Below are positions 5,699 to 59,053 of a stretch of 64,000 bases of DNA, in pieces (position 1 is the stretch's first letter; the number at the start of each line of letters is the position of its first letter). The position numbers and the translations under genes were made by a program. Source of the stretch: a candidate division WS6 bacterium OLB20 (GTDB taxonomy: Bacteria > Patescibacteriota > Dojkabacteria > B142 > OLB20). Under the pieces are notes generated by a model, which saw only the letters and a program-made list of their open reading frames with translations, searched no databases and had not been told where the DNA came from. The stretch is from assembly GCA_001567355.1 (NCBI GenBank), contig JYNZ01000003.1, positions 466,263 through 530,262 on the forward strand, in the 5' to 3' direction.

Positions 5699-5718
5699 AT
5701 CTGATTGTACAGCACCGG

Positions 5719-33297: not shown

Positions 33298-33369
33298 ACT
33301 GATATGATACGCCTGCCTGCAGATCTGTACAAACCAAGTATGCCCTCACCTCGTGTATAATCACCATCG

Positions 33370-41234: not shown

Positions 41235-41531
41235 ATGCAGGTTGAGTACGCAAGCAGAAAAGCCGAGAAGACGTTCAATAAGTACCTCAACGGTACTGAG
41301 TTTTCCAGCAAGATCGAACGGCGTATCCTTGAGTTAGAGGCAGCTCAAGACCTTTCACAAATAGATGCAATCAAGTCTCTACAATTGCATAAGCTTTCCG
41401 GCAAGAGGAAGGGACAAATGTCCATCGCCTGCAAAGGGAGTTGGAAAATAGTTTTTATTGCAAAAGTGGATTTTACTCAATATTCAGAAGTTACAGAGAT
41501 AGAGCTACTGGACTTCGTAGACTACCATTAA
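41235..41531 (+). CDS. higB: HigB-like (RelE/ParE superfamily) toxin
   Basis: LHKLSGKRKGQMSIACKGSWKIVFIAKV...ELLDFVDYH parallels HigB LHPLKGDREGYWSI..NWRITF...YEDYH. Confidence 0.65.
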   Translation: MQVEYASRKAEKTFNKYLNGTEFSSKIERRILELEAAQDLSQIDAIKSLQLHKLSGKRKGQMSIACKGSWKIVFIAKVDFTQYSEVTEIELLDFVDYH

Positions 41532-41534
41532 AAA

Positions 41535-42638
41535 ATGGGCATTAAGTTAGATACAACACAATTTATCATTCCCCCGGGCGAGACCATCAAAGAACAACTC
41601 GCTTATCTTGGCATGTCTCAAAAAGAACTAGCCACAAGAATGAACTACTCAGAGAAGGCTATTAGCAAGCTGATAAACGGAAAAGTTTCATTAACGACTG
41701 ACACGGCACTTGAACTAGAGAATATTTTTGGAATACCTGCAGTTTTTTGGATTAACCTTGATGCGAACTATCAACTACGTAAGAAAAGACAAGAGGATAT
41801 CACTGTATCTAAGAGCGAGATAGACATTGCGAGAAGATATAAGTGTTACGCGGAGATTTCCAATCGCGGGTATGTAAAGAAAACTAGCGACTGGCATCTT
41901 CGTGTTAAAGAACTCTGTCGCTTCTTTGGGGTTTCGAACTTAGGTCAAATTATGAAGCTCGATTATGGAGTAGCATTTAAACAAGCAAGTTCACGCTCAA
42001 TTGACTCATATTCAGTGCAATGTCTTCTAAGAATTGGAGAATTGGAAGCACAAGACATAAGTGTTCCCGATTTTAACAAAGAGGGATTAAAGGAACTTAT
42101 CCCCCAAATTAGGAGTCTAATCACCTTACCTATAGAAGAAGCAATTCAGAATTTACGAGTATTACTAAATTCTGTTGGTGTTAGACTCGTTTTGACTCCA
42201 TCGATCAGCAAAACGATGATTAATGGAGCAGTGAAGTGGTCAGATGACAGGCCAACAATACAAGTGACAGATTACAAGAAAGCTGTTGATATCTTTTGGT
42301 TTACAATTTTCCATGAGCTAGGACATGTTTTGCTTCATGGTAGAGGAAAAGGGAAAAGGTTCGTAGATACATACTCAAATTTATCAAGTAAAGAGAATAT
42401 TGAACTGGAAGCGAACCAATTCGCGCAGAATACGCTTATACCAGAAGATGCATTTAATGATTTCATTGAGAATGGTAGCTTCTATGAAGCTGATATTATA
42501 GGATTCTCAGCTGTTGTAGGTATTCCTGCATCCATCATCGCTGGGAGACTGGCTCACGACAAGAGTATTACTCAGTACGGATACAACTTTGCTCAAAAAT
42601 TCCGAACGAGTATCGATCTAACAGAGATAAATATCTAG
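41535..42638 (+). CDS. HigA-like HTH-XRE antitoxin fused to an ImmA/IrrE family zinc metallopeptidase domain
   Basis: N-terminal HTH (LGMSQKELATRMNYSEKAISKLINGK) and a C-terminal HEXXH motif FTIFHELGHVLLHG. Begins 4 nt after higB. Confidence 0.7.
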   Translation: MGIKLDTTQFIIPPGETIKEQLAYLGMSQKELATRMNYSEKAISKLINGKVSLTTDTALELENIFGIPAVFWINLDANYQLRKKRQEDITVSKSEIDIARRYKCYAEISNRGYVKKTSDWHLRVKELCRFFGVSNLGQIMKLDYGVAFKQASSRSIDSYSVQCLLRIGELEAQDISVPDFNKEGLKELIPQIRSLITLPIEEAIQNLRVLLNSVGVRLVLTPSISKTMINGAVKWSDDRPTIQVTDYKKAVDIFWFTIFHELGHVLLHGRGKGKRFVDTYSNLSSKENIELEANQFAQNTLIPEDAFNDFIENGSFYEADIIGFSAVVGIPASIIAGRLAHDKSITQYGYNFAQKFRTSIDLTEINI

Positions 42639-43372
42639 CAGATCGGATCATATCCCTCACAAGCGTCATACACATAGACATCATCGTATCTTTTCATTCC
42701 TACATACCCCTGAACCAACACTAAATATAGAACATCCTTATTTATCAACGGATTATTCCGAAATTGTCCAGATACATAATCATAAACATCTTCGTCCTCA
42801 GTAAACGGTCTCCAATGACTAATATAGATGATTCCTTTATCACCTTTCTTTCTCTTGCGATATTTCAATATTTGATTTTGAGCATCCTCAATACGGTCTT
42901 TCAGCCAACGTATACTTACAGCAGTCTCCTCTACTGAGGATTTTACCTCAGTGTAGAAAGTTACCCCGTTACACTCACTCTTTAGATCGGGTGTTTTTCC
43001 ATTTTCTTCAGGGATAAACTCAATAAATTCATGCCCCATCTCCAGCAGCCTATGCAAGGCTTCGAATTCAGAGGTGGCCAACCTAAAATCCTTTTGTGAC
43101 ATCCTCCTAGCTTTATCAAGCCACGGCGAGATATCAATATCATTATCGAGAATGTTTCTCACCCTTTCTTCATTTACCTCCACTTCATGACGTCCTGTTA
43201 GAGCTATTAGGTCTTGCAACTTCAGCCAATTATCAGCCTTGCGTCTTATTAACTGCACTTCGTCATAATATGGGATAAGAGATGTTTCTTTCCCAATATG
43301 AGTGAATATGAAAGTATTAGGATCAAAGTTTGAGAGTGTAAACACTTGACCCTTTATTGAATTCTTCGGCAT
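42635..43372 (-). CDS. Hypothetical protein with a PD-(D/E)xK-like motif (possible nuclease)
   Basis: TPDLKSECNGVTFYTEVKS matches PD-x(n)-E-V-K; no other support. Confidence 0.3.
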   Translation of the reverse strand: MPKNSIKGQVFTLSNFDPNTFIFTHIGKETSLIPYYDEVQLIRRKADNWLKLQDLIALTGRHEVEVNEERVRNILDNDIDISPWLDKARRMSQKDFRLATSEFEALHRLLEMGHEFIEFIPEENGKTPDLKSECNGVTFYTEVKSSVEETAVSIRWLKDRIEDAQNQILKYRKRKKGDKGIIYISHWRPFTEDEDVYDYVSGQFRNNPLINKDVLYLVLVQGYVGMKRYDDVYVYDACEGYDPIC

Positions 43373-43410
43373 AACATTATACGAAGCTATAACTCCTCCC
43401 TTGTAACTAC

Positions 43411-43737
43411 CTACCCATTCTGAACATGCTCGTCATAATGCTCAAGCCTATTTCGAGCTGAACGCTTGTGAATCGAACTAGACTCTTTGACCCCAATAAG
43501 TGAGGCCACTGTTTCTTCATATGGTGCACTCTTGCTATTCTGGGGATTTGCTTTTAGCAACTTCGAGACCATAGCGCAATGCGTCAAAAAAGAATGAATC
43601 GACGAAAAAACTAAATCTGTATTTCTAGCCACCTTAGGCTCGAGGCTCTCAAAAGAACGTATTGCAAATGTACATTGTGTGGAAATCTCCCTAACTAGGA
43701 ATTCTTTCCATAAGGCTTCTTTCTGTTTGTTACTCAT
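43411..43737 (-). CDS. Hypothetical small protein, upstream partner of 42635..43372
   Basis: ORF only. Confidence 0.3.
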   Translation of the reverse strand: MSNKQKEALWKEFLVREISTQCTFAIRSFESLEPKVARNTDLVFSSIHSFLTHCAMVSKLLKANPQNSKSAPYEETVASLIGVKESSSIHKRSARNRLEHYDEHVQNG

Positions 43738-43957
43738 ATGTTAAGATTAATAATTCCAAGGGGTTAATATCCCAAGAAGTCCCTCAGTACTCTTTTATGA
43801 GGTTGTAACAAAAATCGCACCAACTCTTCGAGGTCACAACAGGAACAGCTCAATCTCTGTATTTACAGTTTTACCATACCCTTGCACGTGACCCAATGCT
43901 CACAGGGTTACCCTAGATCGTGCTATTGTGTAAGATGTACACATATTATAACCCACC

Positions 43958-44793
43958 ATGAACATACTTAACGCACTAATCAACCTTAGCAAGAGAGACA
44001 CATACAAGATAGACGAGCTATACGAAGGTAATAACCGGATTAATAATGTTGGAGATGCACTGGAGTATTTCATCAAGGATGGGTTCATTAACGAGGAAGT
44101 TTCAAGTAATGAACAAAGAGACAAGAAGTATAGTGAGGCATTCTCTTACCTTGGAAATAGTTCTAATCCACCCGATTTTATGCTTAGAGGTGGTGATGCA
44201 TTTGAAGTAAAAAAAGGTAAAACTCATTACCTCTAACCTAGCTCTAAATAGTTCGCATCCAAAGGACGTACTTTACAAAGATGACCCAAAGATTTCATCA
44301 AGCTGTCGAGAGGCCGAAGGTGGGCAATGGGATAAAAAAAGACTTGGTATATGCTGTTGGAATAGTTAACGAAACAGTTGAAAAAGTATTGTTTGTATAT
44401 GGCGATTGCTATTCTGCGAACAAGGATACCTATGTAAGAGTTAGTAATATGATAAGAAGTGGAATTATATCAATAGAGGGGGTTGAGTTCGCAGAAACTT
44501 CAGAGTTAGGAAGGGTAAATAAGGTTGATCCCCTAGGAATTACTTACTTAAGAATGAGGGGGATGTGGCACATAGAGACTCCATATAAACTGTTCAAAGA
44601 TCAACTAATAGAGCTAGATGCACTCGATAAAAGAATAATCTCGATAATGAAAAAGACTAAGTTTGATGAACTTATAACTGATGAATTAAGGCAGAGTTTA
44701 GAGAAGAATAATACAATCAAAACATGCAGGTTAAGAGACCCCAATAACCCTGCTATACTATTTGACTCAATTATCATTCACTCAAACACATGA
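43958..44793 (+). pseudogene. Type II restriction endonuclease (partner of the HaeIII-like methyltransferase), split into two ORFs
   Basis: PD-(D/E)xK motif PDFMLRGGDAFEVKK in ORF 43958..44236. The C-terminal part is in ORF 44281..44793 in another frame, with stops in both frames between them. Its stop overlaps the MTase start (ATGA). Confidence 0.45.
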
Positions 44794-45782
44794 AAATAGC
44801 ATCATTATTTGCAGGCGCAGGGGGTTTAGACAAAGGTTTTGAAAACGCAGGGTTCACTGTTGAGTGGGCGAATGAATACGACAAAACTATTTGGGAAACA
44901 TTTCGTAAGAATTTTCCTAAAACTCGTCTAGATGAAAGATCAATTCGTGATGTAGATAGTCAGGAAATAAAATCCTTTGGACACTTCGATGGTTTAGTAG
45001 GTGGTCCACCATGCCAAAGCTGGAGTCTTGCCGGGTCAATGAAAGGTATTGAAGATCAACGAGGGTCTCTTTTCTACGAATACCTCAGAGTACTTAGTGA
45101 TATTGAACCCAAGTTTTTTTTAGCTGAGAACGTCCCGGGGTTGATAAGTAAAAGACACATTGGTGAATATAAAAAAATTGTTGCAGAGTTTGAAAAACGA
45201 GGATACCAAGTTACAGAAGGTAAGGTAAATGCTTCAGATTATGGAGTTCCCGAAGATAGAGAGAGGGTAATTATTGTTGGTTTTCATAAAGACTTAAATA
45301 GAAAATTCATTTTTCCGGAGAGGACTCACAATAAGTTAAAGAAAGTCACATTAAAACAGGCAATAGGTGATCTTCCTGAGCCTGTTGCAGCTCTCCCAGG
45401 TAACAATGCGAACTCTAACCTCAAGATACCAAACCATGAATACTTCACTGGAGCATTCTCATCTAGATTCATGTCACGAAATAGAATTAGAGGTTGGGAT
45501 GAGCAGGCATATACAATCGAAGCAAGTGGAAGACATGCAAAACTACACCCTTCTGCACCGCCAATGAAGAAGATCAATAAAGATGAATGGATATTTGAGA
45601 AAGGAAGCGAACATAAATATCGAAGGTTAAGCATCAGGGAGAGTGCTAGGATTCAGACCTTTCCAGACAATTTTATATTTCACTACAGCAAAGTAAATGA
45701 TGGTTATAAAATGGTCGGGAATGCAGTGCCTGTAAAATTAGCAGAAGCGTTCGCAAATGAGATTTTAAAGCAGATTGCTTAA
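44790..45782 (+). CDS. DNA (cytosine-5)-methyltransferase, M.HaeIII-like (probable GGCC specificity)
   Basis: Motif I FAGAGGLDKGF, motif IV GGPPCQSWSLAG, motif VI FLAENVPGL. Length 330 aa with extended similarity to M.HaeIII as recalled (ANEYDKTIW..., PNHEYF..FMSRNR.., FIFHY...DGYKM.GNAVPV). Confidence 0.85.
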   Translation: MKIASLFAGAGGLDKGFENAGFTVEWANEYDKTIWETFRKNFPKTRLDERSIRDVDSQEIKSFGHFDGLVGGPPCQSWSLAGSMKGIEDQRGSLFYEYLRVLSDIEPKFFLAENVPGLISKRHIGEYKKIVAEFEKRGYQVTEGKVNASDYGVPEDRERVIIVGFHKDLNRKFIFPERTHNKLKKVTLKQAIGDLPEPVAALPGNNANSNLKIPNHEYFTGAFSSRFMSRNRIRGWDEQAYTIEASGRHAKLHPSAPPMKKINKDEWIFEKGSEHKYRRLSIRESARIQTFPDNFIFHYSKVNDGYKMVGNAVPVKLAEAFANEILKQIA

Positions 45783-45846
45783 GATTATTGGGTAACTTGT
45801 TGTCCCAAGTAGCTACCACGTTCTACAGCAGACTTTTGTTCAACGA

Positions 45847-45945
45847 TCAATTTGCCTGCCCCTCCCCCTTTTCGTAGGTTTCATCTTCATACTCCTTAGA
45901 AAACTCTATTGCTCTTTTTCTTATTTCATTCCAACTAAGGGCCAT
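45847..45945 (-). pseudogene. 32-aa N-terminal remnant of an MmeI-family (type IIL) restriction-modification enzyme
   Basis: Minus-strand translation MALSWNEIRKRAIEFSKEYEDETYEKGEGQAN then stop. MmeI-family proteins begin MALSWNEIRRKAIEFSKRWEDA.... Confidence 0.55.
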
Positions 45946-46305
45946 TGTACTTTTTTTGCTTTAATTAATTCTTAAGTCAACGGAAAGGCGAATGCCTTAT
46001 TCTACAGCATTTTACCCGAAAGAACATGCCACAAAACTATGAAGATCGACACGTTGCAACAACATACAAGATTTCCGCTGGTATTTCATACCACCTAATA
46101 GACGGCCCTAGTTAGTACATAAAAAAAACAAACTCTCAGACAACAGCGCCTCGTATTCAGAAGCACACCAAGCCCTACCAAAAATAAAGACGTCCGCCTA
46201 TCAAGAAATAAATGTCAACCAACTAGACCATTTTAGTCTACCTGGTAGACACATACATTCTATCCCCACTATAAGTTATACTCATACATATCAGCCATCA
46301 AATAC

Positions 46306-47178
46306 ATGCCAGACCTCCATACGAAATCAATTTCTTTAGACAACCTTTTGGACTCAATCAAGGAATTGATGAACCTACGAGAATCAGAGTATGCTGATTC
46401 GATTGATTCCTTCTTGGGTCTACCCCTTGAGACGAAAGAGGTAATCATTATCAGCCCCCAAAAACACTTTGTCGATAAACTTTATAGATACTACGGATCA
46501 CTTCAAGAGTACCCTACACGCGTCCAAGACAAGTTGGCTCTAAGAGGTGCTCAAGCACAAATTGAAGAGCCACTATTTGTTCACCACTCACCAGTGCTAG
46601 TTACTGACTCAGTATTCACACAACGAGTAATTAATAAATTGAAGGATTTAGAGTTTGTGATAAATGCAGGCCAACGAATACTTGACTACATCGACATTGC
46701 GGGTAAACAAGTCCTGAAAGATAACCTAGCAGAATTCGCTATCCCCGGTTCAACAATTGACTCCGTTGCGGTGACACAGATCACATTTAATTACGAAAGG
46801 TTTCTTATACAGCGATCCACAACCTCACTGCTCTACCCTATGATCAAGAGTCATCAGTTTAAGCTGCTAGCTAATGGCACATTTTATCTTCGAGTACGTG
46901 ACGATTGGAGACTAGGTATAAATACTTCAATCACAGATAAATATGGAAACCAATCCAATAGCAGTAAACTCTTGATTCATCTTCTTCAAGAAAAGAACAG
47001 AATGCCTCAGGTCAATAGATTCCCCATCAAACTACTGCAACGTGAGCTAGGAATTGCTCCAAAACAGATACTCTCGGCGATGGCATCAATAAACAGGAGT
47101 GTCAGTGAATACAAAGCCAAAGAGTTGATAGTCCTGAAGCGTGACAAAGAAGATATAGTGTTTATTTTGCGAAATTGA
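46306..47178 (+). CDS. Hypothetical protein (island cargo)
   Basis: ORF only; AT-rich. Confidence 0.35.
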   Translation: MPDLHTKSISLDNLLDSIKELMNLRESEYADSIDSFLGLPLETKEVIIISPQKHFVDKLYRYYGSLQEYPTRVQDKLALRGAQAQIEEPLFVHHSPVLVTDSVFTQRVINKLKDLEFVINAGQRILDYIDIAGKQVLKDNLAEFAIPGSTIDSVAVTQITFNYERFLIQRSTTSLLYPMIKSHQFKLLANGTFYLRVRDDWRLGINTSITDKYGNQSNSSKLLIHLLQEKNRMPQVNRFPIKLLQRELGIAPKQILSAMASINRSVSEYKAKELIVLKRDKEDIVFILRN

Positions 47179-47222
47179 ATCAGCTGCCTAGCTGATCAGA
47201 GCTGAAGTAATAGTCTCTGGGT

Positions 47223-47387
47223 ATGAAAGTACCCAAAGAAGAGAAACAAATAATTACAGTAAAGGAAGCTAGGAAACTTCTCGGTATTGACGCTAAGCAC
47301 CTAGACGATGAAACAATTGAAGCAATTGTCGACTCTTTAACTCAACTTGCTCATATACAAGTTAATATCAGACAGGAGGGACAGTAA
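47223..47387 (+). CDS. 54-aa putative HTH DNA-binding protein upstream of the recombinase (possible Xis/RDF or regulator)
   Basis: MKVPKEEKQIITVKEARKLLGIDAKHLDDETIEAIVDSLTQLAHIQVNIRQEGQ. Below the ORF-track cutoff. Confidence 0.3.
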   Translation: MKVPKEEKQIITVKEARKLLGIDAKHLDDETIEAIVDSLTQLAHIQVNIRQEGQ

Positions 47388-47437
47388 TTTTTCGATGGCT
47401 GAAGATACTGTTCTTCCTGTTTGTTATTGCAGCCATC

Positions 47438-49040
47438 ATGAATAAGAAAGTAATCGGTGTTGGATACATAAGAGTATCAACGACCAAGCAGGCCGACGAA
47501 GGCGTCAGCCTTGATGTCCAACGCCAAAAAGTAATATCCCTCCTTAAAGAGCAAGGGTGTCAAACGATCAAAATTTATGCAGACGAAGGCAAGAGTGCTC
47601 GTGACGAAAAGGTCGAGACCAATTTCTTGAGGCAATTGATTACTCAACGACTAATAGTGTCCCTTATTTCGCCTGCTACGACCCAACAAGGTTTGCCCGC
47701 AACTCCGTCCAATCACTTGAGTATTTTCAAACACTTCGTGAAGCTGGCACAAAATTGATCTTTGTTGAACAAAAATTTGATGATAGTCCATTAGGTAGGT
47801 TTCTCTTTAACCTTTACTCTGGCCTTGCACAACTACAGAGTGAGGAGCAGGGGCAGAAAATACAGAACTCCATAATTGAGAAGCATAGAAGAGGGGAATT
47901 TCCGCATATGTCACCACCGGGTTATCGGAACATCCGCAGACCTGATGGTCGTGCTGATATTATCATCGAGAAAAAGAATGCCGATCTCTAAAACATGCGT
48001 TTAGAGGATATCTGTCTGACGAGTTCTATCATTTGAGTGACGTTGTGGATTTTTTGAGACGCAATAAATTCAAACCTTATTATTCACGAAAGAGAAAATT
48101 TGAGAGCATAACCGACTCTTCGATAAGTAGAATCTTCAGACAACCGTTCTATGCTGGGTACTTTTACAGCAAAGCGTTAAAGAAAGAGATACCACATGTA
48201 TATCCAACCATAATTACAAGAGAAGAGTTTAAGTTGATTCAGGATAAAATGAGAGGCAAACGCAAACAAACCAATCACTATAAAAAACGTAATCCTGATT
48301 TCCCACTAAGAGCTTCAGCAAGATGCTCAGTATGCGGCAACAAAGTTAGGGGACATAACTCAAAAGGTAGAACTGAGACCTATCCATACTATGCATGCCA
48401 CAAAACACCAGACTGTATAAAGTCTATTCCTACCGAAGATGTACATACCCAGTTTATCGAAAGTCTATCAGCAATCTCGCAGAGTACTGGTAAGCTTCGA
48501 CTATTCACAGAGATACTAAGACGCGTAATTGAACAGGAAAAACAAAATGACAATCGACGGGAGATACTTAGTGTGAGGCAAAGAAGCCTCGAAAAGAAGC
48601 TAAATAACATTACTGACAAAATACTAAACCTAACAAATCAGTCCGTGCTAAAGCGATTAGAGGAAGATTTTGAAGCAAGAACAAATGAGCTTAGCGAAGT
48701 AAAGAGGCAACTTGAGACAATCTCAAAGGAGAATTGCGAACCACCCAGACTTGAAGACGTCACCCTTCTTTCTAATCCAAGTGCGATATGGAAATCGGCA
48801 GGTATTAAAGAAAAAATCGATTTCACAAAGTGGTTATTCCCTGATGGTTTTGAAATAACCCCGAAAAAACAATTGCGAACCGGTGAGATCAATATAGTTT
48901 ACAAGGCTTTAGGGGCTGTTGAGTCTAATGATTCTCAACTGGTGGAGATGGCGGGAGTTGAACCCGCGTCCAGAGAAGCCAAACACATGCAGTATACAGA
49001 TATAGCCATCCTGTTTCAGACGGATCGCGATAAAGGATAG
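47438..49040 (+). pseudogene. Large serine recombinase (resolvase/invertase N-domain + recombinase domain + zinc ribbon + coiled coil), broken into three ORFs
   Basis: The catalytic Ser context GVGYIRVSTTKQADEG is in 47438..47758. The end of the resolvase domain and PPGYRN are in 47755..47991. The recombinase domain, C-x2-C...C-x5-C zinc ribbon and coiled coil are in 48033..49040. Frame changes fall near 47750 and 47985 (A5 run). The last ~100 nt are antisense to the tmRNA 3' end. Confidence 0.7.
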
Positions 49041-49392
49041 CGTAAACCGCGAAACGACTGTACGCTTTTACTTTGCTCTAACAGGCGTACAAGCCACTAG
49101 AGTCTGCACTTTAGCTTGTTTTTCTCCCACGGGACCCCGCTAAAGGAGAGTTTCCATGAAAGGCTTAAATCGCGAGCCGAAGCTCAAGCGAATTTAGGCA
49201 GCGATGTTGAGGGCAAAGTTGCCGCTAAGGGCGAGCTTTACGTTCTCAACAAAGCTTGATACTTTGTTTTTGACGCTTATTTAGTCATTCCGGTTTGATC
49301 CGGAAGGAATCTGCTTACTTACGGCGAAACAGACTAAACAACACCGATCTGCCACACGTATCTGGTATTTCCTGTCGAATCCGGTCATCCCC
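48940..49392 (-). ncRNA. ssrA: tmRNA (SsrA)
   Basis: Minus-strand 5' end GGGGATGACCGGATTCGACAGG matches the canonical tmRNA 5' end (GGGGcuGAuucuGGAUUCGACgGG). The 3' end GGACGCGGGTTCAACTCCCGCCATCTCCACCA has a T-arm near-identical to E. coli tmRNA. The acceptor stem has a G3:U70 wobble. An internal tag-like frame ends ...GNFALNIAA then TAA. Confidence 0.8.
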
Positions 49393-53165: not shown

Positions 53166-53229
53166 AGTCTGTTTGTAACTGCCAGCATTGTACCACTTTT
53201 CTTGAGGACTAATTCGGGTACAATGGGTC

Positions 53230-55191
53230 ATGTACCAGTGGCAGAAACAACTGACAGCCAAAGCTGTTAAACCGATCGGTAAGTTTACACCGTCGACCGG
53301 TCCGCGTATCGACAGACGAACAAAGGACGGTCGTGTCGACCAGATCACGTTTACCATATATGCTGCTCAGAAATACGCACGTATCAAATTGATCGGTCCG
53401 TTTAATGACTGGGGACGTGCGCAGGGAGACTGGCTGCTTGCACAGGATGAGGACAGCGGATTCTACTCCATCACAGTAAAAAAAGGAGTTATTCAGCATA
53501 AGACACCGTATCTCTATCTTGTCAACGGACAGCATCTGCGCGATCCGGCGGCCAGATATTTTGACCGGGACGGCAATGCGGTCTTCTGGGACTTTGGCGA
53601 CCCCAGGGCCTATCAGATGAAATACGACAAGCCGCTTGCGCCTGGCTCGTCCGTCAGGATCATGCAGACCGACCTGCCGGGGATGATCATGCACTACCGT
53701 GGCAAGGACGGCAGACTGGGATGGCAGGTCGAGCCTGACCAGTATTACAGCTTTATCCGCACAAGCGGGGTAATCCGAAAGATCCGTGACCTCGGCTTCA
53801 ATGCTGTGCAGTTTCTGCCGGTGGCGCAGTCGATTGATGGCTCCAAGTGGAGTCTGCGCTATCTTGTGCCATTTTTATACTCAGTCAACAGCTACTGGGG
53901 ATCGCCTGACGAGTTTGCCCGCATGGTTGATGCGTTCCACAAAGAAGGCATTGCAGTCATCCTAGACCTGGTGATCTCACATGCTCCGTTTAAAAAGTTC
54001 AACCTGTTCGGCAAGCCGTCCGAGGATGTCGGCATTCATCTCTGGAAGCGTGCAGGCAATGACGATGTGTTTCTGGGAGAAGAGACATCCTGGGGTACAA
54101 AGCGCTACCGGATAGAAGATGAACATGTGCGCAGATTTGTGGTTGAGTCAGCGCTCAGTTTTATCCAGCAGTATCGGGTCGACGGATTCAGGATTGATAA
54201 CGTCGACGGGATTGTGCGATACGGTGACAATGGAGATGGCGCCGAACGGCCCCACGGCCGCGAGTATATCCGCGAACTTACCGGTACGGTCTACGACTAC
54301 GCACCCGACACCCTGTTTCACTTTGAAGCTCATTACTTTTACAGAAACAATGCCAAATGGCTGGTGCAGGCGCTTGATGAGCACAAAAAAGCACTCGGCG
54401 CGACCGCATACACAAGCTCTCGCCTCACCTACCATTTTCATGCCGAGTACATGCCCTACAGCGGTGACAAGATTTCACCATGGACGTACAAACACATTAT
54501 TGATGAAAAGGAATGGGGCGAATCAAACAGCACTGTTGCCGACTTTCACAATCATGATGCCGCAGCAGGTCTGATGCCGATGCGCGCGACAGGATCATAT
54601 GCCTATGACGCACTGATCCTGAAAAACCCGGAACTGCACACCCATGCCATCGGAAAAATCAAAGCCATGGAGGCCCTGATCAGCTTTGTCTGTGAAGGAC
54701 GTACACTTGACCTGCTGCAGACGTTTCTGTTGCAGACAGAGAGCTTTGAGCACGATTCAAGCATACACTGGTACCGTGACGCGACAGATGCGGTGCAGGG
54801 AATGCTTGCCTTCAAATCTGCTGTGAACTCGCTGCTTGACGACCCCGCATTCTGGCCGGTCAGTATTGGCGAACGTCGGGTCATTAATGTGGACGAGGTC
54901 ACAAAGACACTGACCGTTGTACGTTCGACGCAAAAAGACAGCGGCAGACACGGATATCTTGTCATCATCCACCTGACAAGCAGCATGCTGACTGACCTGA
55001 TCGTTCCCGCACCCGTCAGCGGTGAATACGAAGTGGTGTTTGACTCGGACCGTTTTACCTATAGCGGTACAGGCAGAACAGCACTACCCGCAGCAATCAG
55101 TTCAGAGAAGACATCACTGTTCGAACTGTTTCCCGAAGGCGTCCGTCTGCCCTCAGTGGGCCCCTACCACGTGCTTGTGCTGAAGTTCTGA
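53230..55191 (+). CDS. GH13 alpha-amylase family enzyme, 1,4-alpha-glucan branching-enzyme-like
   Basis: CBM48-like N-terminus (FTIYAAQKYARIKLIGPFNDWG) and catalytic regions GIAVILDLVISHA, VDGFRIDNVDGI, FLGEETSWG. Confidence 0.7.
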   Translation: MYQWQKQLTAKAVKPIGKFTPSTGPRIDRRTKDGRVDQITFTIYAAQKYARIKLIGPFNDWGRAQGDWLLAQDEDSGFYSITVKKGVIQHKTPYLYLVNGQHLRDPAARYFDRDGNAVFWDFGDPRAYQMKYDKPLAPGSSVRIMQTDLPGMIMHYRGKDGRLGWQVEPDQYYSFIRTSGVIRKIRDLGFNAVQFLPVAQSIDGSKWSLRYLVPFLYSVNSYWGSPDEFARMVDAFHKEGIAVILDLVISHAPFKKFNLFGKPSEDVGIHLWKRAGNDDVFLGEETSWGTKRYRIEDEHVRRFVVESALSFIQQYRVDGFRIDNVDGIVRYGDNGDGAERPHGREYIRELTGTVYDYAPDTLFHFEAHYFYRNNAKWLVQALDEHKKALGATAYTSSRLTYHFHAEYMPYSGDKISPWTYKHIIDEKEWGESNSTVADFHNHDAAAGLMPMRATGSYAYDALILKNPELHTHAIGKIKAMEALISFVCEGRTLDLLQTFLLQTESFEHDSSIHWYRDATDAVQGMLAFKSAVNSLLDDPAFWPVSIGERRVINVDEVTKTLTVVRSTQKDSGRHGYLVIIHLTSSMLTDLIVPAPVSGEYEVVFDSDRFTYSGTGRTALPAAISSEKTSLFELFPEGVRLPSVGPYHVLVLKF

Positions 55192-55251
55192 GACGCTTGT
55201 GCCGAGGTCCCCTGTGCAGCTGCAGGAAGGCCATCCACCATTTAGGTATTA

Positions 55252-55440
55252 TTAAGGACTGCGTTGCAGGCTCTATGCTACAGTAAGCTCACGGGGCGGG
55301 GCTGGTAAGCCCCCCGAGATTGCAAAGCCACGCAACAGCTCCAATATTCAGATGATTCTCGTATTAATCATCCGTTAAGGACTTCTGTCCTGCGTGCACG
55401 CTACAATAAAGTAAGGGGAACGGGGTGGCAACCCCTGGCA
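55252..55440. other. Two tandem related ~67-nt units (TTAAGGACT-N16-GCTACA-RTAA-...-GGGGn-hairpin) in a convergent intergenic region; candidate structured small RNA(s)
   Basis: Unit A 55252-55318 and unit B 55375-55440 share TTAAGGACT and GCTACA, and each ends in a GC hairpin: ggggc-tggtaa-gcccc and gggg-tggcaa-cccc. No U-tract follows either hairpin. Confidence 0.3.
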
Positions 55441-55459
55441 GCAGTAGCACGTATCGATA

Positions 55460-55906
55460 TCAGACCTCAAGCTCAAATGTCTGCTCCTCACCCAGCAGCT
55501 CGTCATCCCAGTACTTGATGTACGAAGGAGTGATCCGGTAGAGACTGACCTCTGCAGATCCGTCAAGAAGTGCATCCGCACTTACGTGTTCCCAGCCAAG
55601 CTGGTTCTTCAGTGCGGCAAGGCCTGCCTCAATATCAGAACGCTCCGTCAGCATGGTACATTCTCCTCTGCCCTGCACGGATTTACGGTCCTTCATATTG
55701 TCAGGGTCAAACCACGCGGTGGAAAAAGCCACATTGCCCGAATTTTTTATATGAACGCTGTGGCGTGCTTCAGGCATGGAGAGAAAATACAGTGTCAGAT
55801 CATCAGATGCAAAGTAGACATTGCAGATCCAGGGACCGTCTTCATCAGCTGTAGCTATAGTGAGCAGCTGCTGCGAAGCCAGAAAGGTGACAATCTGTTC
55901 ACTCAT
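55460..55906 (-). CDS. Pyridoxamine 5'-phosphate oxidase-like FMN-binding split-barrel protein
   Basis: LTIATADEDGPWICNVYFA pattern of PNPOx-like/general stress protein 26. Confidence 0.65.
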   Translation of the reverse strand: MSEQIVTFLASQQLLTIATADEDGPWICNVYFASDDLTLYFLSMPEARHSVHIKNSGNVAFSTAWFDPDNMKDRKSVQGRGECTMLTERSDIEAGLAALKNQLGWEHVSADALLDGSAEVSLYRITPSYIKYWDDELLGEEQTFELEV

Positions 55907-56196
55907 GCTGTCTCAACACTCTTTGGCTGTCCGGGCTTTGCAGTTACCGGCGGCATCTCTTTGCCGTAGGCAGCTTTTACAACATCACGCAGTGACACTG
56001 CAGCCCAGACAAGATTAAGCAGGACAAACGCCCAGCCCTGGATCAGAAAAGCTGACAATGCCAGCAGCACGCTTCCGATCACATTGGCGCTGTCATAGCG
56101 GATGTGCTTATCGCTCCATGTACCGTTCTGGTTCAATACAAATGCAAGCAGGATGATGGCGGCACCTGCGATTCCGAGGATGTTGGCAATGTCCAT
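55903..56196 (-). CDS. Small membrane protein
   Basis: Two or three TM helices; start overlaps the next gene by 4 nt. Confidence 0.35.
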   Translation of the reverse strand: MDIANILGIAGAAIILLAFVLNQNGTWSDKHIRYDSANVIGSVLLALSAFLIQGWAFVLLNLVWAAVSLRDVVKAAYGKEMPPVTAKPGQPKSVETA

Positions 56197-57879: not shown

Positions 57880-58985
57880 ATCAAAATACTCACGCTGCTC
57901 CTCCGGCAGCCTGTCTCTGACGAGCTGTAGCAGAGCTCCATACTGATCTCCTCATCCAGATGTTCTGCTGTCCAGTCCGCAAGCACACGGTACAGCGTTA
58001 CCGTTTCGGGTTTATAGTCCCTGCCTGCTACAAGCACAGCTACATGTTCAGTGCCTCCCTGCTCCTCACATACCTGTTCATAATTCCTGCAGAACGCTGC
58101 GTGGTTTCGCACAGTCTGGTCGGGAATGTAGCGCTGCTCCAGGTCAGTGCTGTATGTGATCAGATCGTTTTCGTGCCATCTTTGCAGGATCGGATACGCA
58201 ATTCTGTTCAGGTACAGCTCGCGTTCGGGGGCAAGGTACGGTCCGTTCTGCGTGATGTGCTTCAACAGTATGGAGTTGGTGATGACGTGATTGCCGCTGC
58301 TGTCCTTCTCTGACTGCCCTGCTGCAATACTGGCATCGATTGCCTGCATCATACTGACGATCATTCCTGCAGAATTCTTTGCGCCCCGCCGCACTCCAAA
58401 CCATGAGTTAACATCTGCAGACTCCTGTTCAGCTGACTGCAGAAATCCGGTGACGACATGACCGAGCACGACAGAGTTTGCCTCAATCCCGTTCTCCGGC
58501 ACAATCAGCGTGCGCTCACGCTGCAACCTGATGCCGCTGCCGTTAACAGCAGGCATGTTTTCTATTCTGATGGTATTAAGAAAGCCGTTGTTGCGCGCAA
58601 CAGGCTTGTAAAAGTGCCGCGAATGAAAATCACCTGCATGACGGGGCTTCAGTTTGTTGAGTGTTTCCGCGACTGCTCCTGAAGCAACCGGGATTCCGGC
58701 CGCACGCAGGAGTACAATGCACAACTGCTCGCGTGAACCGGTTGCCAGCATACCTTCGATATCACGGACGGCATCATACTGACGGTCAGGTCCCCACTGC
58801 AGCGAGCTGACAGCTCCGCTTTTGTTGTAGTGCATCAGCGCAGGGTACGGGAGATTGGAGGGCAGCGGCAGAGGCGCAACCTGATCAGGATCAAAACCGC
58901 CGGAAAAACCGGCATCATATTCGAGCCATTCCGCAATATCTGCTGGACTCATTGTGTGGCGCACAGGCCGATCAGACATTTCCAT
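57846..58985 (-). CDS. Hypothetical protein
   Basis: Long ORF; no recognised motif. Confidence 0.35.
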   Translation of the reverse strand: MEMSDRPVRHTMSPADIAEWLEYDAGFSGGFDPDQVAPLPLPSNLPYPALMHYNKSGAVSSLQWGPDRQYDAVRDIEGMLATGSREQLCIVLLRAAGIPVASGAVAETLNKLKPRHAGDFHSRHFYKPVARNNGFLNTIRIENMPAVNGSGIRLQRERTLIVPENGIEANSVVLGHVVTGFLQSAEQESADVNSWFGVRRGAKNSAGMIVSMMQAIDASIAAGQSEKDSSGNHVITNSILLKHITQNGPYLAPERELYLNRIAYPILQRWHENDLITYSTDLEQRYIPDQTVRNHAAFCRNYEQVCEEQGGTEHVAVLVAGRDYKPETVTLYRVLADWTAEHLDEEISMELCYSSSETGCRRSSVSILICTRWSTPWTT

Positions 58986-59053
58986 GGCGAATTATATCAA
59001 AGTGATATCACAGCTCCTAATTGCCGTCGTGCGCACGGCAGGTATAATGAGGC

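Follow-up and report, generated by a model that had tools for sequence, protein, structure and literature searches.

The spacer between the GH13 and PNPOx genes

The window, that is the whole 64-kb stretch of DNA analysed here, belongs to the candidate division WS6 (Dojkabacteria, candidate phyla radiation) bacterium OLB20, an uncultivated organism, and is compactly organized, intergenic DNA making up 8.6% of its length. A GH13 / GlgB-like gene (53230-55191, +) and a PNPOx gene (55460-55906, -) converge in it, and the spacer between them (Table 1) is bounded on the ORF map by their two stop codons, as the first-pass annotation had stated. It is the longest convergent gap of the window without a known RNA gene inside; the other convergent gaps mostly measure 0-166 nt, the majority of them no more than 64 nt, and the one longer gap on the ORF map (49041-49314, 274 nt) holds the tmRNA gene. 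PNPOx is the final gene of a six-gene minus-strand operon starting at 58985, and 3' of the spacer the next plus-strand gene lies 3.6 kb off, with six minus-strand genes between. Comparison of the spacer with itself also revealed two perfect palindromes of 10 nt, namely TGCAGCTGCA at 55215-55224, made by two adjacent CTGCAG sites, and GCGTGCACGC at 55392-55401, within the 16-nt gap of the second repeat unit described below.

The closest relatives of the GH13 protein are only 59-61% identical to it, so the collections searched hold no close relative. At the closest of these, a syntenic locus (L006, 3762-4076), the GH13 gene directly overlaps a gene of the CBU_0592 family, and neither PNPOx nor the spacer is present; a second relative (L003) has an unrelated spacer of 211 nt, and three more distant ones (L010-L012) have gaps of 40-57 nt and other neighbour genes. 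Just two homologues of PNPOx were found in a collection of 5.8 billion proteins. This scarcity, together with the absence of PNPOx and spacer from L006, indicates a lineage-specific acquisition or insertion, and points to the PNPOx gene and the spacer having been acquired recently and in this lineage alone. Below a few matches from Dojkabacteria, the named GH13 homologues at 46-49% identity came mostly from DPANN archaea (Woesearchaeota, Nanoarchaeota/Nanobdellota), which suggests that the GH13 gene is common to small-genome DPANN/CPR-type lineages across domains. Two further sequences of the locus (L001 and L009), from other samples, were found to be of the same strain and to differ from the window in homopolymer lengths only; the strain is present in assemblies of SRR29904086, SRR29904083 and SRR1797700. 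Over 55130-55960, L009 (SRR1797700) has one A fewer in an A-run, which splits PNPOx into two called ORFs, and 7 C instead of 6 at 55310-55315, adjoining hairpin 1; these differences are probably sequencing errors.

The tmRNA gene (48940-49392, -) adjoins an island of low GC content (41235-49392; GC 0.38-0.41 vs about 0.51 elsewhere). The island carries a HigB-like toxin with an HTH/M78 partner and a C5 DNA methylase, as well as two genes that are each broken into two ORFs, one for an NgoPII-type restriction enzyme (43958-44236 and 44281-44793), the other for a serine recombinase (47438-47758 and 48033-49040). The second recombinase ORF overlaps the 3' end of the tmRNA gene. The island has the appearance of an element that integrated at tmRNA and is now decaying. 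At 453 nt the tmRNA gene is long, and the tag predicted by ARAGORN is unusually long at 26 residues and ends in ALNIAA.

Two related non-coding units in the spacer

The spacer contains two related units in head-to-tail order, with a start-to-start period of 123 nt (Table 1). Both units have the same order of elements: TTAAGGACT (block A), 16 nt, GCTACAGTAA in unit 1 or GCTACAATAA in unit 2 (block B), a GGGG run and a GC hairpin. The two-block pattern TTAAGGACT-N16-GCTACARTAA occurs exactly twice in the 64 kb, where none is expected, and each occurrence is followed by a GGGG..CCCC hairpin. When three mismatches were allowed, these two matches were still the only ones in the window; the pattern of the unit hairpins likewise gave two matches, both in the units. 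Of 20,000 shuffled versions of the spacer, one produced a comparable two-block repeat. The first-pass annotation was thus right to see here a non-random pair of related non-coding modules with a hairpin kept in both copies.

Table 1. Features of the spacer; positions are those of the window
Feature	Position	Strand	Remarks
Spacer	55192..55459	.	268 nt, between the convergent GH13 and PNPOx genes; ORF map and Pfam
Unit 1, 62-nt repeat core	55252..55313	+	79.8 bits with covariance model R1
Block A1, TTAAGGACT	55252..55260	+	AGGACT part may be an element of the -35 region; 18 nt separate it from the -10 hexamer
Block B1, GCTACAGTAA	55277..55286	+	-10-like hexamer TACAGT at 55279-55284; predicted start A55291
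Promoter-like site TTACCA-17-TACTGT, unit 1	55280-55308	-	Alternative site; 7/12 matches, read by hand
Hairpin 1, GGGGCU-GGUA-AGCCCC	55298..55313	.	6 bp, -15.7 kcal/mol in context; a second GGGG run stands before it, 55293-55296
AU-rich hairpin, GAUGAUU-N8-AAUCAUC	55351..55372	+	Between the units; -5.5 kcal/mol, z = -2.4; no counterpart after unit 2
Unit 2, 62-nt repeat core	55375..55436	+	80.1 bits with covariance model R1
Block A2, TTAAGGACT	55375..55383	+	Pattern match
Block B2, GCTACAATAA	55400..55409	+	-10-like hexamer TACAAT at 55402-55407; predicted start A55414
Promoter-like site TTGCCA-17-TATTGT, unit 2	55403..55431	-	Alternative site; 9/12 matches, promoter scan
Hairpin 2, GGGGU-GGCA-ACCCC	55422..55435	.	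5 bp, -9.4 kcal/mol; a GGGG run stands before it, 55415-55418

Aligned without gaps, the two units are identical at 40 of 62 positions (65%). In the same 123-nt register, the flanks agree at 13/60 positions before the units and 17/61 after them, together 30/121 and at chance level, and the difference between core and flanks is pronounced (Fisher p = 3.7e-7). The pair is therefore a discrete module and not a decaying tandem duplication, and either this half of a longer copy alone may have been kept or a 62-nt module may have been copied on its own. The length of about 67 nt first given for the units had to be shortened to a similar core of 62 nt, and the relatedness of the pair was borne out. 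Block A is identical at 9/9 and GCTACARTAA at 9/10 positions, and the 16 nt between them agree at 6/16 with their length kept; the 12 nt before the units show no similarity between the copies. A permutation analysis could not distinguish this clustering of identities into blocks from 65% identity spread randomly (P = 0.17-0.30). The conserved single-stranded blocks named in the first-pass annotation are accordingly not significant as blocks, and block conservation as a proof of selection was dropped on this ground.

The hairpin lies at the same offset in both units. The hexaloops described for the two hairpins fold as tetraloops, GGUA and GGCA, closed by a U-A pair, and the hexaloop reading is the same pair left open. 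The stems differ by one compensatory pair (C-G vs G-C), a covariation that comes from two sequences and was equalled in 259 of 500 shuffles. On the minus strand hairpins 1 and 2 fold at -13.8 and -8.0 kcal/mol, respectively. Given their composition of G-runs and C-runs the hairpin energies are not unusual (z = -1.5 and -0.1), and for whole units the folds do not surpass those of shuffled sequence (z about -0.6). A modest advantage over shuffles was seen for the segment 55287-55374 (z = -2.2). Folding revealed no structure common to both units beyond the one short hairpin. Read on the minus strand, the PNPOx stop codon is followed by hairpin 2 after 25 nt; hairpin 1 and the GH13 stop codon are 106 nt apart. 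The absence of U-tracts was confirmed: no terminator-like site was listed in 54800-55900 on either strand, because U-tracts are lacking. Both hairpins provide the GC-rich stem-loop of an intrinsic terminator (6 bp and 5 bp); what follows the stems is not a U-tract but CCGAGAUU and UGGCAGCA (plus strand) or GCCCCGUG and GUUCCCCU (minus strand). These results support the view that the units are not canonical terminators.

The 4227 covariance models of Rfam 15 were searched for known RNA families. No match was obtained in the spacer at E values up to 10, either in a 3-kb context or with 371 nt alone, and a scan of the whole window at gathering thresholds returned the tmRNA only. ARAGORN found no tRNA-like gene in the spacer. 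A known RNA family was ruled out by these three Rfam scans together with ARAGORN, in agreement with the novelty proposed at first. A covariance model (R1) was then built from the two units and run with filters off. Over the window and about 17 kb of additional flanking genome (L013 and L014), about 81 kb in total, it recovered the two units and nothing else, and short-word blastn of the spacer against the window detected no further copy. A many-copy dispersed repeat family of the REP, MITE or PATE kind was therefore not seen in these ~81 kb of genome. The element was absent at five loci with GH13 relatives (L003, L006 and L010-L012), where R1 returned nothing below E = 0.06.

Searches with the exact pattern gave one match among 185,579 species genomes, on a Sphingobacteriaceae contig and without a hairpin; one match in the viral contigs of IMG/VR, with a 17-nt gap and again without a hairpin; and no match in the JGI metagenomes. 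By our estimate these outside matches are at or below chance expectation. The expectation of conservation in the genome and its relatives was thus not borne out, R1 having found the two units and none in relatives, and a conserved non-coding element of Dojkabacteria was not recovered in the loci and collections searched. The repeat pair is a real pair of orphan non-coding modules in one strain, belonging to no known family.

Several other identities were considered for the units. The two copies lie in the same frame as GH13, the period being 41 codons, and their translations in that frame are alike (..LRT......Y[SN]K[LV].G.GW). By hand count in this frame, the differences at codon positions 1, 2 and 3 number 9, 6 and 6; a start codon is present in unit 1 only (TTG at 55264, 14 codons), unit 2 having GTC there, and the other small ORFs lie in different frames in the two units. 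A small peptide or protein-coding gene was rejected for want of a third-position bias and of a start codon in unit 2. A degraded C-terminal extension of GH13 was rejected because its homologues, of equal length, align over 100% of the protein. Promoters of the sigma-54, sigma-28 and ECF types, an integron attC site, a DNA uptake sequence, a tRNA anticodon arm and nut-like boxA/boxB all misfit in spacing or core bases, as judged by eye against their consensus sequences.

The suggestion of a riboswitch-like element did not hold, because the units are placed 3' of both genes and a single hairpin is all the structure they have in common. The next plus-strand gene is more than 3.6 kb away, whole-unit folds have z of about -0.6, and neither a 5' leader position nor a multi-helix aptamer with covariation was found. 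A riboswitch is effectively excluded by position and lack of shared structure.

Promoter-type features and competing explanations

The -10 hexamers of this genome provide the context in which the blocks can be read. Among 71 long ORFs, 8 have a TAnAnT hexamer 5-6 nt ahead of the start codon, where 0.43 would be expected, and the arrangement TACAAT, 5 nt, ATG precedes the GH13 gene; TACAAT is also found before other genes. TAYART hexamers are enriched 3.6-fold in intergenic DNA (37 vs 10.4 expected), and about 26 of these 37 are aimed at a gene start within ~300 nt. Only six of the 37 have no same-strand gene start within ~300 nt, and both unit sites are among them. Hexamers of the TAnAnT type clearly serve as -10 elements in this genome. 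Throughout the window many genes have a -10-like hexamer (TATAAT, TACAAT or TATACT) 5-8 nt before the start codon, examples being 53219-53232 (+), 53187-53192 (-), 58991-58996 (-), 59043-59048 (+), 33356-33361 (+) and 5704-5709 (-). The hexamer-to-start distances have a second peak at 23 nt, and -35 elements or Shine-Dalgarno sequences are scarcely evident near the start-proximal hexamers. A -10 hexamer this close to the start codon implies that the mRNAs would be leaderless.

The best reading of the units, and a tentative one, is that they may be two diverged paralogous promoter-type modules on the plus strand. Both units have a hexamer of the form TAnnnT, as expected of a sigma-70-type promoter; no -35 element with at least 4/6 matches lies 16-18 nt upstream, AGGACT agreeing with TTGACA at 3/6 positions (hand count) across an 18-nt spacer. 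Column +39 of the units, 7 nt past the hexamer, is A in both (55291 and 55414). TACAGT or TACAAT inside the block GCTACARTAA of each copy would then be the -10 hexamer, and TTAAGGACT, at its fixed distance upstream, would be either a weak -35 element (AGGACT, 18-nt spacer) or a regulator site lying over the -35 region. We infer promoter activity, with likely transcription starts at A55291 and A55414, and each transcript would carry a G-run and a stable GC hairpin at its 5' end.

No plus-strand gene follows, so the products would be non-coding. The first RNA would be ~85 nt long and end near the AU-rich hairpin, and transcription of the second would continue into the PNPOx operon from its 3' end, in antisense direction. 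RNAs of this kind might work by transcriptional interference or by forming an RNA duplex. It is also conceivable that the modules are inactive relics which arrived with the lineage-specific PNPOx insertion. A more specific proposal appears unlikely, in which the units would actively produce a pair of lineage-specific regulatory RNAs, as their genes or promoters; these RNAs would be controlled through the TTAAGGACT box, of which the GH13 promoter has a near-identical version (TTGAGGACT), and would act antisense on the PNPOx operon or in trans.

What speaks for the promoter-type modules is the discreteness of the units (core 40/62 vs flanks 30/121) and the combination of two kept blocks (9/9 and 9/10) with 16 nt of fixed length between them, which is a two-box promoter geometry. 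The use of TAnAnT as -10 element in this genome, TACAAT before GH13 and the intergenic enrichment of TAYART argue in the same direction, as do the A placed 7 nt past the hexamer in both units and the hairpin at the same offset with one compensatory pair. A further hint at a common protein site is given by TTGAGGACT at 53202-53210 (+), which matches block A at 8/9 positions and lies 8 nt upstream of the GH13 -10 hexamer (TACAAT, 53219-53224). The gap from TTGAGGACT to the hexamer is thus 10 nt, about one helical turn, shorter than the 18 nt in the units. Sites with one mismatch to block A numbered 14 in all vs 10 expected, so that TTGAGGACT near the GH13 -10 may mark a common regulator or protein site or may equally be a chance match.

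The same reading is opposed by a -35 element of 3/6 and by the sigma-70 scan, which listed neither plus-strand site, and the minus strand is about equally promoter-like (9/12 in unit 2). The clustering of the blocks is non-significant (P = 0.17-0.30), the plus strand offers nothing to transcribe for 3.6 kb, no terminator follows either unit, and no homologue was found in the collections searched. Similarity between the units also ends ~22 nt past the predicted start, where paralogous sRNAs should share a seed or a terminator. The initial view of the units as a functional RNA or protein-binding module can be kept in its second half, since protein binding fits the promoter-type reading, and is weakened by the lack of significant clustering of the blocks.

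If the hairpins rather than the boxes were the functional part, they could be non-canonical terminators or 3'-end protective structures of the GH13 mRNA and of the six-gene PNPOx operon that converges on it, one hairpin serving each direction or both being bidirectional, with the upstream sequence merely duplicated along. This is somewhat unlikely. It would agree with the convergent stop codons that flank the spacer, with hairpins that are symmetric and stable on both strands, with a stem kept through one compensatory change, and with the place of hairpin 2 just 25 nt past the PNPOx stop, where the minus-strand tail GUUCCCCUUACUUUAUUGU is partly U-rich. Moreover, canonical terminators hardly exceed chance numbers in this genome (24 vs 16.4; 22 vs 17.3), so other types of 3' end must exist. 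However, neither hairpin is immediately followed by a U-tract on either strand, 106 nt separate hairpin 1 from the GH13 stop, and the energies are usual for the base composition (z = -1.5 and -0.1). Hairpins of the GGGG..CCCC kind have a single further intergenic occurrence in the 64 kb and are thus not the general 3'-end signal of this genome, and the hairpin region is less conserved (11/16 identical) than the two upstream blocks (18/19).

Both boxes and hairpins would be leftovers or coincidences if a short segment had been copied once, for example by template switching or with the PNPOx insertion, and both copies had since drifted as neutral relics. We regard this, too, as somewhat unlikely. 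The block pattern is compatible with a uniform 65% identity, the folds are no better than shuffles, the sequence searched holds no copy elsewhere, and PNPOx with its spacer is missing at the L006 syntenic locus and has two homologues in all. Against drift stand the sharp boundaries between core and flanks and the retention of the 16-nt spacing, the hairpin position and one stem pair; moreover, in a compact genome two useless copies would not be expected to last to 35% divergence under deletion bias.

A mobile origin, with the units as hairpin ends of an IS200/IS605-type or PATE-like element or as a REP-like pair, is highly improbable. Such a remnant would account for two GC hairpins that are alike, face the same way and lie 124 nt apart, and for a spacer that adjoins a lineage-specific gene insertion, in a genome that does carry mobile DNA (the island at 41-49 kb with its serine recombinase), but no transposase is nearby, no inverted terminal repeats are present, and no further copy was found in ~81 kb of genome or in the collections. 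The similarity furthermore reaches 46 nt upstream of each hairpin, and the left and right ends of IS200/IS605 elements are not known to be alike in that upstream-extended way.

It is very unlikely, finally, that each 62-nt unit is itself a cis-regulatory RNA or trans-acting sRNA, with single-stranded UUAAGGACU and GCUACARUAA boxes and the GC hairpin as its 3' end. The box-box-hairpin order on the plus strand does resemble a seed followed by a terminal stem, UUAAGGA is Shine-Dalgarno-like and its complement anti-Shine-Dalgarno-like, and 55287-55374 folds with z = -2.2. Yet no promoter is conserved upstream, where the preceding 12 nt are dissimilar; a U-tract is lacking, the hairpin is the only secondary structure in common, and the spacer alone gave no Rfam match at E = 10. 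A riboswitch in this position would have no downstream gene to control, and with no homologues there is no covariation to support a fold.

Relation to known systems and significance

Tandem paralogous sRNA genes with their own promoters are known from PrrF1/PrrF2 of Pseudomonas aeruginosa and OmrA/OmrB of E. coli. The units resemble these as two diverged head-to-tail copies in one intergenic spacer, with conservation concentrated in promoter-like boxes, their fixed spacing and a stem-loop. They differ from them in that the similarity ends ~22 nt past the predicted start, with no shared seed or intrinsic terminator and no homologues in the genomes searched.

Several features recall the sigma-70-type, -10-proximal (leaderless-type) promoters of this genome: the hexamers TACAAT/TACAGT, whose second letter is A and sixth T, a box upstream whose distance does not vary, and the purine that follows 7 nt later. 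TACAAT also stands directly before GH13. Unlike such promoters, the units have a -35 of 3/6 with an 18-nt spacer and no gene downstream, and they point towards a convergent operon at its 3' end. With intrinsic terminators and REP-type 3' hairpins they have in common a stable, GC-rich hairpin that can fold on either strand in a convergent spacer, whereas the missing U-tract, the presence of only two of the kind in ~81 kb and the 46 nt of related sequence upstream set them apart. Riboswitches and cis-regulatory leaders are similar in being non-coding with a conserved stem-loop and in nothing more; the units, in contrast, lie 3' of both neighbours and lack an aptamer-like fold of several helices, a match in Rfam and phylogenetic conservation.

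Candidate-phyla-radiation bacteria have tiny genomes with few recognisable regulators, and to our knowledge almost nothing has been learned of their promoters, terminators and regulatory RNAs. Should the modules be inactive, they would be an orphan repeat of one strain without wider consequence. If they are active, they would provide defined boxes, predicted starts and a possible operator in common with the GH13 promoter, and thereby a handle on transcriptional or antisense control in an uncultivated episymbiont. If the reading as a pair of regulatory RNAs were true, this would be, as far as we know, the first combination of a promoter and regulator box with an sRNA pair to be defined in Dojkabacteria.
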